From NCBI GenBank assembly GCA_951406725.2, contig OX597821.1:75082001-75146000 (forward strand): DNA of 64,000 bases, in the 5' to 3' direction. This document shows, in pieces, positions 6,876 through 62,915 of the stretch (the first letter of the stretch is position 1; every line of letters starts with the position of its first letter). The stretch comes from Octopus vulgaris. Lineage: Eukaryota. The notes beneath the pieces were generated by a model. The model worked only from the letters and a program-made list of their open reading frames with translations. It did no database searches and was not told the origin of the DNA. The translations under genes and the position numbers were made by a program.

Positions 6876-6964
6876 TATTTTATTTATTACACTATTGTAT
6901 GACTGAGCGCCCTCGCGTCGATTCGATTCGTTTCGTTTCGTTTCTTCTTCTCCAAGTAAGATTT
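6876..6964 (+). repeat. 89-bp direct repeat, copy 1
   Basis: Identical to 7694-7782 (TATTTTATTTATTACAC...CCAAGTAAGATTT). Confidence 0.95.
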
Positions 6965-7418
6965 TATATATAATTATGACGCGAAACTCTATAACTCTTT
7001 GCTTGACCTTCCCTTCTTTCCCTATCTCTCTCTCTCTCTCTCTCTCACTCCTCCTCATCTCTCTCACAGCCGCTTGTCTTCCTCTATCTCTCTCTCTCTC
7101 TCACTCCTCCTCATCTCTCTCACAGCCGGCCGACTACTTCCTTTCGCCTGCGGCCTCCTAACAGTAAACACACGGTCTTCTTGCGCTCTTAAGAATCTTT
7201 CCTCGTCTAGGCCAGAAAAGGCCCTCTTTGTTTTCTTGTTTGTTTTTATTTCTTGTATTGTATTTTTTTGTATTGTATTTTTATTTTGTATTTTATTTTG
7301 TATTTTTTTTTGTAATTTTTTTGTATCGTTTTTACGTCCTGTTTGTGTCACATTTTTTTCTTTCTTTGTTTTTACCCCTCTGCGAAGTATTTTTATTTAA
7401 TTCTTTCGCAGGAAGGGC

Positions 7419-7492
7419 TAGTTCGACGAGTCGTGTTCTGTCCTCACCTTCGAAACACGCTGGAGTTGAACTAAGGACAGCTGATGAAGGGG
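7419..7492 (+). ncRNA. Candidate non-circularly permuted hammerhead ribozyme (order: site, GAAA, CUGAUGA)
   Basis: Stem III CGTGT 7432-36 / ACACG 7455-59; site GUU ending at 7437; stem I CTGTCCT 7438-44 / AGGACAG 7474-80; GAAA 7452-55; CTGATGA 7481-87; stem II CCTT 7447-50 / AGGG 7488-91; extra helix TAGTTCGAC 7419-27 / GTTGAACTA 7465-73. Confidence 0.75.
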
Positions 7493-7693
7493 TTTTTCCT
7501 TGTGTAGTTTGTCTTGTACTCTGTTTTTTCGTTGTTAAAAAAAGGTCCGTTCCATGCTTGTTTTTACGTTTTCGTTTCTCGTTGAGGTCTACGTCTATTT
7601 GTGGTGTCCTGTACTCACGTATATATATTTATATATGCATGTTTATATACATGTAGATGTAGGTACGTACATATATGCATGTATGTATGCATA

Positions 7694-7781
7694 TATTTTA
7701 TTTATTACACTATTGTATGACTGAGCGCCCTCGCGTCGATTCGATTCGTTTCGTTTCGTTTCTTCTTCTCCAAGTAAGATT

Positions 7782-7782
<1 letters not shown>
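7694..7782 (+). repeat. 89-bp direct repeat, copy 2
   Basis: Identical to 6876-6964. Confidence 0.95.
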
Positions 7783-7878
<96 letters not shown>

Positions 7879-16610: not shown

Positions 16611-17037
16611 ATACAGACACACACACACAAATACATACATATTTATATGTGTGAATGTATGTGCCTTTGTGTGTGTGAGAGAGAGAAAGAAAGGGAGAGA
16701 GAGAAAACAGAGAGAGAGTGAGAGTGGTGTTTATATACGCATACGTATTCTTTTAAATATTCAAGCAAGTATATATGTGTGTATGTGTGTGTGTGTGTCT
16801 AAGCATGTAATAATTTATTTGAATAAACTCTCATTATACTCATGCAGTTATAAACACATTCTCGCGCCTGCGCTTCAAGTAGAGATATTAACTGTTTACC
16901 TTTGTTGTATTTGGTTTATATATAGCCGTTAGGTTTACGTAGTTTTGTATGAAGTATTTTTATTCAATCTATATACATACGTGTGTGAATATCTGTATAT
17001 ATCATCTTTATGTATATATATACATATGTATGTATGT

Positions 17038-17115
<78 letters not shown>

Positions 17116-17536
17116 ATACATGCGTGATGTGTCTGCATCTATGAATGTGTATGTGTATGTATGTATGGATATATATATATTCATATATATATTTGGGTGT
17201 GAGTGTCTCTCTACCTGTGTGTGTATACAATTGTATATCTGCGTAAAGAATTTGCATATAATTTCACACGATCCTCTTTCTAAATCATTAAATTTCATTG
17301 AAGCATGAATTTGTGTTTAACATTTCATATATAATTTATATGTTGTCTTTTTATATTGTCAAGTTTTGGTGTTTGTGTAAAGTGATATACAGAATGAAAA
17401 GCATTTCTAACCCCGAAACAGAATTTGAAAATGAATAAATGTGAAGTTAGAGGCGGAGAAAAATATACGAAGAAAATGCTTGGATGGTTCGAAATTGATG
17501 GAAGAGGAACGTACAGTTCTGTATTTAAGAGATGAG

Positions 17537-17960
17537 GAATTATGTACGTTATTTACATTTGACGGATATCTGTCCTCATCAGGTGTCTTGAGAAAACTTT
17601 GAACCTGGGTTCTTATTCCTAAGGTACTTTTCGATGTTATTATTATTATTACTACTATTTTTCAGATCACTATCTGGAATCGACCTCGGAATCAGTAGCC
17701 CGAGCTTTCAACCACTCCTCCATATGCCCATGGGCAATTACAGAGTGAATTTTAGTGCTTATAAATCAAATATTCTCCTATCTTTCCTTAACCTGAATAA
17801 TAATAATATTAACATCGAAAAATATCTTAGGAATGAGAAACCAGGTTCGAAATTGCCCCAAGACACCCGATGAAGGCTGGGGGGTATATCAGCCGAAACA
17901 ATTTGTTAACAACAAACTAGATGAGGACAAATATCCATCAAATCTAAATAATATAAATAA
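17537..17960. mobile_element. Divergent (inverted) pair of a tRNA-headed repeat with a Penelope-like hammerhead tail
   Basis: Arms 17537-17665 and 17793-17960 are imperfect reverse complements. A tRNA-like head starts on the minus strand at about 17729 (GGGCATATGG...GAGGTCGATTCCAG). The right arm has CCGATGA-AGGCTG...CAGCC-GAAAC. Confidence 0.7.
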
Positions 17961-22082: not shown

Positions 22083-22673
22083 AAGGCGGCGAGCTGGCAG
22101 AGACGTTAGCACGATGGGCGAAATGCTTAGCGGTATTTTGTCTGCCGCTACGTTCTGAGTTCAAATTCCGCCGAGGTGGACTTTGGCTTTCATCCTTTCG
22201 GGGTCAATAAATTAAGTACCAGTTACGCACTGGGGTCGATATAATCGACTTAATCCGTTTGTATGTCCTTGTTTGTCCTCTCTGTGTTTAGCCCCTTGTG
22301 GGCAGTAAAGAAATAGGTATTTCACCCGTCGCTACGTTCTGAGTTCAAATTCCGCCGAGGTCGATTTTGCCTTTCATCTATTCGGGGTCGGTAAATTAAG
22401 TACCAGTTACGCACTGGGGTCGATGTAATCGACTTAATCCGTTTGTCTGTCCTTGTTTGTCCCCTCTGTGTTTAGCCCCTTGTGGGTAGTAAAGAAATAG
22501 GTATTTCACCAGTCGCTACGTTCTGAGTTCAAATTCCGCCGAGGTCGATTTTGCCTTTCATCCATTCGGGGTCGATAAATTAAGTACTAGTTACGCACTT
22601 AATCGACTTAATCCGTTTGTCTGTCCTTGTTTGGCCCCTCTGTGTTTATCCCCTTGTGGGTAATAAAGAAACA
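22083..22673 (+). mobile_element. Family B SINE trimer: one head plus three bodies of about 183 bp, inside a 17-bp TSD
   Basis: TSD GATAGTATTTACTGAAG at 22066-22082 and 22674-22690; bodies restart near 22317 and 22500. Confidence 0.9.
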
Positions 22674-32998: not shown

Positions 32999-33038
32999 GT
33001 ATACACACATATTCCCGGCAAGTTTCTTGCCGGTGCCT

Positions 33039-33113
33039 CCAGAGTGGAAGCAATATTATCGATAATGGCCGAAATTGCGTTCAGCCCTCTGGTCGATAAC
33101 TGATGAGCAGTTG
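33039..33113 (+). ncRNA. Candidate non-circularly permuted hammerhead ribozyme, second family
   Basis: Stem III GCAAT 33050-54 / ATTGC 33074-78; site AUA ending at 33055; stem I TTATCGA 33056-62 / TCGATAA 33093-99; GAAA 33071-74; CTGATGA 33100-06; extra helix CCAGAG 33039-44 / CTCTGG 33087-92; upstream hairpin CCGGCAAG/CTTGCCGG at 33015-33033. Confidence 0.75.
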
Positions 33114-33289
33114 GAAATCTTCTGTGTTTTCTGTTCGCCTGTGTATTTACTACACATTTTCTTAATTATATATATAGGTGTGTTAAATTTTCCTTTGTGC
33201 CTTTTTATTTAATCCTGAAATACATGTGCGTGTGTGTATGTGTGTATATATATATATGTGTGTGTATGTGTGCATGTAGGAGCGTATTC

Positions 33290-39410: not shown

Positions 39411-40005
39411 CCCATCAAAAATTCTTTCCTACTCTAGGTACAATGCCCAAAATTTTTAGGGAGGGGGGTCAGTCGATTAGATCGACCCCGAAATGACGAA
39501 AGGCGAAGTGGATCTCGGCGGAATTTGAACTAAGAACGTAAAGACAACGAAATATCGCTAAGCATTTCGCCCTGCGTGCTGACGTTTCTTATTTCTTTAT
39601 TGCCCACAAGGGGATAAACATAGAGGGAACAAACGAGGACAGACAAAGGGATTAAGTCGATTACATCGACCCCAGTGCGTAACTGGTACTGAACTTATTC
39701 GACCCCGAAAGGATAAAAGACAAAGTCGACCTCGGCGGAATTTGAAGTCAGAACGTAGCGACAGACGAAATACCTATTTCTTTACTACCTACAAGGAGCT
39801 ATACTCAGAGGGGACAAAGAAGGACAGGCAAACGGATCGAGTCGATTATATCGACCCTAGTGTGTGACTGGTACTTAATTTATAGACCCCGAAAGGATGG
39901 AAGACAAAGTCGATCTCGGCGGAATTTGAACACTGAACGTAACGGCAGACGAAATACCGCTAAGCATTTCGCCCGGCGTGCTAACGTTTCTGCCAGCTCA
40001 CCGCC
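39411..40005 (-). mobile_element. Family B SINE multimer inside an 18-bp TSD
   Basis: TSD TTACATCATACACAAATT at 39393-39410 and 40006-40023; three B-box-containing bodies. Confidence 0.85.
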
Positions 40006-41832: not shown

Positions 41833-42635
41833 ATGTCGCCCGCAGACAGATTTGATAGTGAAGAGAAATAATATGAGTGATAAGAATGACTTTATAGCGG
41901 TTTTGACTGCTATTTCTAAACATGTATGTGTTTTTGAAACCCTCTGAGTTATAATTGCGACTTGTTCATAATTATAAACAGTCTTCTGCGTATTTTATGA
42001 TAACATGTTTGGCCATTGATATACTCATAAATTATTACTAATTGTTTAGAATGTAACCTCCGTAATGCATTATTACATCACTTTTTAATTATTTAATTTT
42101 CCCGACTCACAACCGGTGATTTTGCGGAGGCTTCAATTTACCGCTCTTTTCTCATAAACGCTGTACATGGCATTTGAATTCAAAACTTGAATGTATACAT
42201 AGAGGTTGACACATTTCTCTTTCCGGTCGGGATACATGTTAGCACCAAGGTAAAGTGTTGGATTGATTTCTATCTATAGGAATATAACCCTGACGAGACG
42301 AATGAGTCCCTTAATAGGTCCCTAACGTCGAAATTGCAAGAGGGAATTAAGCAGTTATTTTAACGTTGTGGATTTTATTTTTTATGTCGCCTGCAGACAG
42401 CTTTGATAGAAAAATAATATGAGTGATAAAAAATGGCTTTATAGCGGTTTTGACTGCTATTTCTAAACATGTAAGGGTTTTTGAAACCCTTTTAGTTATA
42501 ATTGTGACTTGTTCATAATTATAAACGTTTTTCTATGTATTTTATGATAACTTATTTGGCCATTGATATATGCATAAATAATCATTAATTGTTTACGATA
42601 TAACCTTCGTAATGTATTACTACATCAATTTTTAG

Positions 42636-44037: not shown

Positions 44038-45073
44038 ATCATGTCATCCCATAAGTTCTGTCCGATTTACTATTTTTCTAAAAATTGAATGAAATTTATT
44101 GGTATTTTAGAATGTCTAATGGAATTAAAAATTATTTTTATGCATTTGTGCACATTTAAACTAAGGAAATATTTTACAGAGTAATAAAATTAAAATTTCT
44201 TTGATTAAAACTTATTCTAACATGGAAGTATCCAAAGAACATTTAAAGGTACATAATGCTTTATGAGTACAAAAAAAGGAAACTCTGCAGCCGAAGCGAC
44301 TCGAAACATACACTCAGTTTATGGGAAAGAATGCTTGAATGAAAGAAATTGCAGATGGTTTGCAAAATTCAGAAGTGGAAATTTTAGCCTTGAAGATGAA
44401 GATTGAACAGGACGTCCAGTTGAGTTTGATGATAACCTCCTCGAGGTATTACTTGAGGAAAATTCTGCATTATCAGTTGAAGAATTAGCAATAAAGCTTA
44501 GTTCAAACCATACAACTGCTCATCGGCATCTTCAACAACTTGGAAAGGTTCCTAAACTTGGAAAATCGGTGCCTCATGAATTGTCTGAAAGCAACCACAA
44601 ATCCCAAGTTGACATCTGCTCTTCTCTCCATTCTCGCGAAATCATTTCACCCTTTTTGGACAGTCTTTTGATTGGTGACGAAAAATGCATCTTCTATCGC
44701 AATGTTAAACGTCATAAACAGTGACTTGGTAAAAGGAAAAAAGTTCAACCACAACTGAGAAGAGGTCTTCATGGAAAAAAAGTTATTCTCTCTATCTGGT
44801 GGGATTGCAAAGGAGTAATTCACTTTGAATTGTTACCACCTAATGTAACAATCAATGCTCAAGTCTACTGTCAGCAATTAGAGCGTTTGAACCAAGCTTT
44901 GAAGAAAATAAGACCCGCTTTAGTGAATCGAAAAGGAGTGATGTTTCATCAGGGCAATGCGCAGCCCCACACTGCAAATATCACATCACAGAAGATTGAA
45001 GAGCTTGGTTGGGAACAAATTCCTCATCCAGCTTATTCTCCCGAACTTGCTCCTTCAGACTACCATTTATTTC
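44038..45073 (+). mobile_element. mariner (DD34D) transposon pseudogene, 3' truncated
   Basis: ATG at 44222, MEVSKEHL...WFAKFRSGNFSLEDE..GRP; SVPHEL; IGDEKCIFY; HQGNAQPH; HPAYSPELAPSDYHLF; stops and frameshifts. Confidence 0.9.
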
Positions 45074-45404
45074 GTATATATACATACATACACAATACAT
45101 ACATGCATATATACATATGTATATGTATTTAAGGCACACAGTTCAGCCATCTCACCACAGTTGTAACTTGTAAAACATAACAATCACCACTACTACACGA
45201 ACTTGAAGATTGCATAGTTTAATGCATGTAAGTAATAGTTCAATCAGAATGGATATTTAATATCCTTTCATTTCATTATCTTATCTTACCTTTTATTATA
45301 TTATTATGAAATTGCAAATACGACATGAAAATCAAAGTTGGAATTTCTTTGAGTAATACACACACACACACACACACACACATATGTATGAATATATACA
45401 TATA

Positions 45405-55707: not shown

Positions 55708-56445
55708 GACGGCGAGCTGGCAGAGAAGTTAGCACGCCGGGCGAAATGTTTAGCCGTATTTCGTCTGCCGTTACGTTCTGGGTTCAAATTCCGCCGAGGC
55801 CGACTTTGCCTTTCATCCTTTCGGGGTCGATAAATTACGTACCAGTTACGCACTGGGTACGATGTAATCCACTTAATCCGTTTGTCTGTCCTTGTTTGTC
55901 CTCTCTGTGTTTAGCCCCTTGTGGGTAGTAAAGAAATAGGTATTTCGTCCTTTTCTAAGTTCAGTGTCCAAATTCCGCCGAGGTCGACTCCGCTTTTCAT
56001 CTTTTTGGGGTCGATAGATTAAGTACCAGTTGCATACTGGGGTCGATATAATCGACTGCCCCCCCCCTCTCCCAAAATTTCGAGCCTTATGCCTAGAGTA
56101 GAAAAGAATCGTTAGCACGCCGGCCGAAACGCTTTGCGGTATTTCGTCCGTCGCTACGTTCTGAGTTCAAATAACGCCGAGGCCGACTTCGCCTTTCAGC
56201 TTTTCGGGGGTTGATAAATTAAGTACCAGTTGCATACTGGGGTCGAACTAATCGACTGCTCCCCACTCTCCGAAAATTCCGGTTCTTTAGCTTAGAGTAG
56301 AAAAGAATTGTTAGCACGCCGGCCGAAACGCTTTGCGGTATTTCGTCCGTCGCTACGTTCTGAGTTCAAATTCCGCCGAGGTCGACTTTGCCTTTCATCT
56401 TTTCGGGGTTGATAAATTACGTACCACTGAAACACTGAGGTCAAT
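55708..56445 (+). mobile_element. Family B SINE tetramer
   Basis: One full head at about 55708 and B-box bodies near 55780, 55960, 56160 and 56360. Confidence 0.85.
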
Positions 56446-62754: not shown

Positions 62755-62915
62755 ATGGGTACAGGACATCAAAACAAAAACCATAATGAGAAACGAAAAC
62801 AAAAACATAGAAACGAACTTTAATTTCAACCAACGAAAAAACAGAGAAACGAGACATGCAACATAAAGAATATTCCCCTTCTTCAGTTGTCCCTGTTTCA
62901 TGAAGGGGCATCCAT
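62755..62915 (-). mobile_element. Decayed relative of the 7419-7620 permuted-hammerhead element
   Basis: Minus strand CCCCTTCAT-GAAAC-AGGGACAA-CTGAAGA-AGGGG, followed by a tail homologous to 7490-7620 (CTCTGTTTTTTCGTTG...GTTTTCGTTTCTC...TGTCCTGTAC). Confidence 0.7.

Follow-up and report, generated by a model that had tools for sequence, protein, structure and literature searches.

A putative split-core hammerhead ribozyme near the 3' end of a non-coding retroelement of Octopus vulgaris

A candidate hammerhead ribozyme with an unusual strand connectivity lies in a 64,000-nt stretch of the Octopus vulgaris genome (contig OX597821.1, positions 75,082,001 to 75,146,000; hereafter the window). We read the motif as a split-core hammerhead, in which the backbone would be opened between A9 and G10.1, situated near the 3' end of a ~710-nt non-coding retroelement; this prediction from sequence is given a probability of about 0.62. 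From 5' to 3', its parts would be the 5' strand of stem II, the first strand of a helix P0, stem III with the cut site and stem I, the 3' strand of stem II followed by GAAA and stem III, the second strand of P0, and stem I with CUGAUGA, with P0 clamping stems I and II together. As a monomer, the RNA would be cut after A33055. Judging from the hammerhead crystal structure, A9–G12 could still stack on G10.1–C11.1 without a backbone link. The split-core fold is quite probably the working form of the superfamily of repeats described below, and the chance that the window copy itself is active is about even.

The motif resides in a copy of a repeat family termed F2. A search of the animal's own 2.8-Gb genome with the window island returned 638 candidates, 40 of which were scored (84–90% identical), and 39 of the 40 other matches were aligned as sister copies. 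An earlier sequence-only reading had described the island as non-repetitive and about 210 bp long; the length agrees with the extent of the F2 copy, but the number of candidates contradicts the first part of the description. Full F2 units are ~710 nt, arranged head to tail with (TA)n at both ends; tandem units have a period of 707–721 (L113, L122, L129), and an interrupted dimer is found in L047. Met-started frames within one unit reach at most 82 codons, an inverted partial copy is present in 10 of the 39 loci, and the ribozyme motif is located ~60 nt before the unit 3' end. The family shows the traits of a non-autonomous Penelope-like element, namely 5' truncation, inverted partial copies, a tail and a microsatellite target. 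It is also a non-coding tandem unit with a hammerhead, as in non-LTR retrozymes, but this hammerhead is not of type I. The reverse transcriptase and GIY-YIG frame of an autonomous Penelope-like element was found neither in the unit nor upstream of its start.

The window copy comprises the final ~165 nt of one F2 unit and the initial ~45 nt of the next, with a 23-nt internal deletion near 33144–33149 (Table 1). All strings on which the sequence-only reading was built (hairpin, P0, stem III, AUA with A33055, stem I, GAAA and CTGATGA) are present where it placed them, and its expectation that stems I and III and P0 would be preserved in homologous copies is borne out. Each pair of the 8-bp hairpin is present in 35–38 of the 39 sister copies, and the sister family S1 carries a related hairpin with one pair changed. 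In the proposed 7-bp stem I, the seventh pair forms in only 11 of the 39 sister copies, and a suggested extension of stem III by GAA/TTC is not preserved across families. The cores are retained in 23 of the 40 F2 copies, and the window copy is one of five among the 40 with no defect in the cores, in stems I and III, in P0 or in the four upstream stem II pairs. The ribozyme proper of the window copy is proposed to end at A9 (33106), and the bases 3' of A9 differ between families. A weak hairpin is predicted at 33105–33122 and at the equivalent place elsewhere (13 of 15 family majorities), 3' of or overlapping G8–A9; it may account for the purines kept 3' of A9, or may represent an off state. 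The window copy and the F2 copies L006, L010 and L018 all have their 5' ends no more than a few bases from where the 8-bp hairpin starts, at about -45 to -49 from the cut.

Table 1. Coordinates of the F2 copy, its predicted ribozyme parts and other features of the window
Feature	Position	Strand	Remarks
Open frames, judged by eye to resemble a non-LTR element and two transposase fragments	909-2079, 16990-17479 (-), 44724-45129		
Family F1 copy with split-core motif	6880-7783 (motif 7409-7495)	+	In a longer-than-unit insertion; unit ~815 nt
CTGATGA with stem II deleted	17530-17600	-	Presumably a Penelope-type end
Tandem arrays, 184-199-bp units	22146-22671, 39590-39958, 55939-56426		Taken to be a tRNA-derived SINE
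Family F2 copy, 5'-truncated, of ~710-nt non-coding repeat	33011-33222	+	Alignment to complete units L122, L129, L123
8-bp hairpin 5' of the ribozyme	33015-33033	+	Arms 33015-22/33026-33; terminal G is the proposed G10.1
Proposed stem II, 5' strand	33033-33037	+	G10.1 is G33033, T33034 bulged, then GCC; upstream of core; cross-family covariation
P0, 5' strand	33039-33044	+	Adjoins stem II strand, like the stem I-II helix of type SGC/CSG hammerheads (PMC10085705)
Stem III, 3' strand, with U16.1 (33054) and A17 (33055)	33050-33055	+	Predicted cut 33055/33056
Stem I, 5' strand	33056-33062	+	Opens a 12-nt palindrome (33055-33066) peculiar to F2
Stem II, 3' strand	33067-33070	+	C11.1 is 33070; covariation
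G12-A13-A14-A15.1 (GAAA, 33071-74) and stem III, 5' strand (33074-78)	33071-33078	+	
P0, 3' strand	33087-33092	+	Each P0 pair kept in 33-38 of 39 F2 copies
Stem I, 3' strand (33093-99) and C3-U4-G5-A6-U7-G8-A9 (33100-33106)	33093-33106	+	
(TA)5 unit junction	33167-33176	+	Unit 3' end/insertion target
'Tail'	33177-33222	+	Start of next unit, read through the junction; same sequence opens full units L113, L116, L122, L126, L131
Type I-like minimal hammerhead	42290-42340	+	CUGACGA, 4-bp stem II, GAAA, then a 6-nt palindrome; no Rfam hammerhead match
Family C copy, 5'-truncated	62790-62905	-	Begins inside P0; short inverted piece at start

The F2 motif belongs to a larger superfamily. Two core patterns gave 180 (control 27) and 9,603 (control 64) matches in the genome, and 15 motif-bearing families were defined from the fetched loci; F2 is distinct from the family of the other window copy, F1, as the sequence-only reading had proposed. 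The core elements CUGAnGA, GAAA and UH of a hammerhead are present, and stems I and III, on either side of the cut, show covariation. Their strands pair when taken from the same family but not when taken from different ones (0 of 100,000 label permutations; 12 families). Stem I is 92% and stem III 98% paired with changes on both sides; the alignment rows were pre-filtered for at least three of four pairs in these stems, which inflates the percentages paired but not the compensatory changes. U16.1 pairs with A in 28 of 28 distinct rows, and GAAA is invariant across 29 rows that were chosen by the GAAA motif itself. A G at position 17 blocks hammerhead cleavage. As catalysis requires, each of the 15 family majorities has A, C or U at position 17, and position 7 is variable. 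P0 does not align in a single register across clades (61%). Family F1 carries a GUU site in 27 of 27 copies and has 1,872 candidates, with top matches 95–99% alike; family N has 2,948 candidates with top matches 92–99% alike. Contigs of runs under four coded organism labels also fall on family N; among the matches listed, their differences are confined to P0, the linker and a single position of stem III, sparing the core bases and stems I and II.

The pairing partner of stem II was examined in a gapped alignment, made from sequence alone, of the 29 real copies nearest to the majorities of 14 families (family H left out), which was filtered on stems I and III, not on stem II. The five bases before GAAA pair with the strand just 5' of P0 in 93.4% of cells. 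This upstream helix has 48 cells changed on both sides and a covariation of 0.816 (0 of 500 shuffles), compared to 32–45% pairing in slid registers; the shuffle and permutation counts given here overstate independence, because the families are related and hold about six distinct stem II sequences. Its first pair is G–C in 25 of 28 rows and it ends exactly before GAAA, so that the upstream strand supplies the G10.1–C11.1 pair beside G12 that is expected of a hammerhead stem II. Families S1, P and N form 5–6 upstream pairs versus 0–1 downstream pairs at offset 0 or 1. Among 137 distinct descriptor matches, 39 combine at least four upstream with at most two downstream pairs and one shows the reverse, at least four downstream pairs are possible in 58, and the upstream duplex is the more stable in 14 of the 15 family majorities; for these counts and those for S1, P and N, upstream partners were sought over a broader range than downstream ones, favouring the upstream strand, whereas the alignment covariation used fixed columns. 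An automatic search for the upstream register had misplaced families K, F and G, with 366 of 100,000 in its re-searched permutation, and the gapped alignment with more copies corrected their registers. In F2, the upstream stem II pairs are kept in 35, 36, 33 and 39 of the 39 sister copies. The sequence-only reading had instead placed the partner at 33107–12, which leaves C33070 unpaired before GAAA and includes two of six pairs that form in only one and two of the 39 sister copies, C33108 being almost unique to the window copy (1 of 39). The cross-family covariation moves the partner upstream, to 33033–37.

Evidence bearing on cleavage comes from the 5' ends of copies. From the 9,603-match pattern, 93 loci were chosen by the part from GAAA onward alone, and 84 were scored. 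Of the 5' ends, 17 fall within -3 to +11 of the cut (15 nt), compared to 20 in the 97 nt upstream (p = 1.5e-6); two copies start further downstream and 45 extend beyond -100. The end of L116 at the cut is an insertion instead of a truncation and was excluded. A second scoring method applied to 91 loci gave 27 versus 23, and 14 loci of family C, selected blind to the upstream part, gave six ends in the cut window, two upstream within 100 nt and one downstream. Several ends lie within 2 nt of the cut, and most lie 6–11 nt after it, often at TA-like bases common to the target. This pile-up in sister families suggests cleavage in vivo. It supports cleavage and not a topology, because those families could use either stem II partner. 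Stalling at an RNA structure is a rival explanation for the ends, but the 3' strand of every helix would already have been copied by that point.

An unlikely alternative is that the superfamily cleaves, whereas F2 or the window copy is a weak or dead derivative that lost a stem II base relative to S1, gained a palindromic trap and misfolds. F2 has the weakest upstream stem II of the families, with 4 bp and a bulge, or 3 bp in another register, and is one base shorter here than S1; S1 and P retain a perfect 5–6-bp stem II with the same upstream strand. The modest likeness of the F2 copies and the predicted alternative folds point the same way. G33033 (G10.1) also closes the 8-bp hairpin, resulting in competition, and the nested minimum-energy fold of the window copy, a type of fold that cannot score pseudoknots, lacks P0 and stems II and III alike and sequesters GAAA within a hairpin that the copy's own changes at 33082–84 favour. 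Furthermore, AUA is a natural but slower cleavage site, which ranked last in speed when four triplets were compared in a natural hammerhead (PMC1636495), and the 17 F2 loci show no clear pile-up at the cut: three ends fall in the cut window and five at -11 to -14, with the script behind the 84-locus count having scored only two of these loci. However, further F2 ends at +1 to +11 occur in mixed selections (L174, L122, L139 and L404), and F2, carrying this stem II, has reached hundreds of genomic sites. The window copy has every element intact, and its differences from the family majority spare the core bases, stems I and III, P0 and the upstream stem II. The earlier suggestion that it is partly decayed, which was drawn from the misplaced stem II, is not supported for the ribozyme.

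It is quite unlikely that the motif is an ordinary type SGC hammerhead, in which the active stem II would form with the bases 3' of CUGAUGA, allowing for one extra base, and the upstream helix would serve as a conserved off-switch. With the extra base, the downstream register is 70.1% paired, with C–G in 23 of 28 rows and covariation matched in 8 of 500 shuffles; a G stands two places after A9 in 14 of the 15 family majorities, and four pairs are possible in the F1-like clade. In addition, an extra base of this kind is present in the tested SGC-3, judging from its oligos (PMC10085705). However, the downstream pairs are mostly G–U and lack family specificity (81,004 of 100,000 permutations), and the downstream G was partly demanded by the search patterns used to collect the families. 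The canonical downstream register pairs at 48.9%, like shuffles. Downstream pairing is impossible in S1, P and N; in N, a U follows A9 in 14 of 14 copies, and four downstream pairs form only by looping out five bases. The window copy forms one downstream pair. It is moreover the upstream strand that P0 adjoins, rather than the downstream strand. In the split-core reading, the motif has the block order of type SGC (site, GAAA, CUGAnGA) and a P0, the strand of which lies 5' rather than 3' of the core. It lacks the uninterrupted block C, in which CUGAnGA is followed within 1–2 nt by the stem II 5' strand.

The idea, also raised by the sequence-only reading, that the RNA acts as a dimer through the palindrome at 33055–33066 is very improbable. 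A strong self-duplex is possible in F2, and the minimal hammerheads of Penelope elements have been proposed to act as dimers (PMC4209133), but the full palindrome is found in only one of the 15 families (F2), the duplex would occupy the stem I strand and place no CUGAUGA beside the cut, and the lengths of stems I and III suffice for a monomer.

The block order in the window (cut site, GAAA, CUGAUGA) is not a circular permutation of types I–III. A descriptor for this order, requiring the cores, a stem III of at least 4 and a stem I of at least 5, matched twice in the window (7451, 33070) and once in 150 dinucleotide-shuffled windows, in line with the earlier prediction of a non-circularly permuted hammerhead with an AUA site at 33055. 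It did not match any of 120 viral loci chosen as core-only matches as a negative control. A search of metagenome contigs with one family-specific pattern gave no matches. A chance arrangement within low-complexity DNA would agree with an Rfam scan of the window that returned nothing at gathering score (best hammerhead 15.7 bits versus 37 required; a weak Hammerhead_II match, E 1.3), but it deserves virtually no credence, being refuted by the cross-family covariation, with the core-pattern, permutation and descriptor counts also contrary. The motif is not a circularly permuted three-way junction matching a model of Rfam clan CL00010, and the Rfam models are unable to express its block order.

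In the proposed cycle, tandem transcripts would be cut to unit-length RNAs, which a Penelope-type reverse transcriptase/endonuclease would copy in trans into (TA)n. Linear cut templates would yield short copies starting at the cut, and uncut, multimeric or circular templates would yield copies like that of the window, which begins 45 nt upstream of the cut and runs past the junction. Mobilisation in trans is inferred, because no coding partner sharing the F2 ends was found among the loci examined. A reverse transcriptase/GIY-YIG frame beside L012 was rejected; it belongs to another family, F2 sequence occurs at only one of that family's 30 loci, and both Pfam scores are below cut-off. L110 is unrelated, and the frame beside the F1 copies in L065 is antisense. 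Among 30 GIY-YIG loci checked for the motif, there were no sense-strand copies and one antisense copy. An expression search with the family N query gave no RNA source among the matches listed.

The genome also contains a Neptune-like Penelope family that is young and has open frames of 781 codons (L347, L352 and many further loci); ~70 nt ahead of the (TA)n end, this family carries a type I-like motif in which the core is altered. The coding Neptune-like elements carry such type I-like motifs and not the split-core one. The L040 family has a motif without the CUGA core at the same place near its end. In a further repeat (L173, L177, L182, L183, L186, L187 and L190), an additional CCGAAA precedes a type I-like CTGATGA...CCGAAA motif, with no site block found.

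The closest known relatives of the motif are the permuted hammerheads of Eckert et al. (2023), who derived six orders on the assumption that CUGAnGA and its neighbouring strands are uninterrupted (PMC10085705). The SGC and CSG forms have an extra helix, the strands of which follow stem II and precede stem I (PMC10085705). Because P0 has the neighbours of this stem I–II helix, the split-core motif would be the same ring opened between A9 and G10.1. From G10.1 onward its order is identical to that of type CSG-1; in types SGC and CSG, CUGAnGA runs straight into stem II, whereas in the octopus motif that step is an open end (PMC10085705). The examples of Eckert et al., which derive from IMG/M data sets and one bacterial GCS candidate, have been shown to cleave, whereas the octopus motif is a prediction, and the supplement of PMC10085705 contains no match to 'octopus', 'Metazoa' or 'Eukaryota'. 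The motif would thus function in the manner of types SGC and CSG, housed in a retrozyme-like element, yet fall outside SGC by its block C.

Smaller departures at the same position are known. Penelope hammerheads typically carry an additional base between positions 9 and 10.1 (PMC4209133), a viroid hammerhead likewise has one at A9/G10.1 (PMC3705267), and engineered hammerheads function with a linker in place of helix II (PMC544870). For a full backbone break at A9/G10.1, no precedent was found in the literature searched. That search, which covered sources other than subscription journals and repeat databases, found neither a split-core hammerhead nor a permuted hammerhead in an animal; the repeats themselves may already be catalogued. 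PMC13725137 (November 2026) cites Eckert et al. and two other works for hammerhead variants, and the accessible part of one of these, PMC10162972, holds nothing relevant.

Among mobile elements, animal non-LTR retrozymes are likewise non-coding, carry one hammerhead per unit, occur as monomers and tandems and have a proposed Penelope dependence; however, they have type I hammerheads in units of ~220–390 nt, whereas the octopus families have the permuted split-core motif in units of ~710–880 nt and are mostly dispersed and 5'-truncated (PMC7229834; bioRxiv 10.64898/2026.07.22.740005). Penelope-like elements resemble F2 in the near-3'-end position of the hammerhead, the tail, the inverted 5'-truncated copies and the microsatellite targets (PMC4209133; Craig et al., bioRxiv 10.1101/2021.04.23.441226). 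Their pseudo-LTR hammerheads, however, are of the minimal type I (PMC4209133), and no reading frame is linked to F2.

Taken together, we consider it probable that the octopus motif is a seventh natural hammerhead wiring with its core split at A9/G10.1, that it is active in vivo and that it occurs in about ten thousand or more copies of at least 15 Penelope-mobilised retrozyme-like families of one animal genome. If true, this would overturn the assumption that CUGAnGA and stem II must be contiguous, and the motif would be, within the literature searched, the first non-circularly permuted hammerhead linked to an animal mobile element, supplying many natural variants for structure work. With an end pile-up at the cut, genomes alone could test whether Penelope-type hammerheads cleave the retrotransposed template, a long-open question. 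Since standard descriptors all miss the split-core motif, elements now called hammerhead-less may carry it, and a new descriptor would become available for Penelope clades reported without a hammerhead, such as Naiad (bioRxiv 10.1101/2021.04.23.441226).
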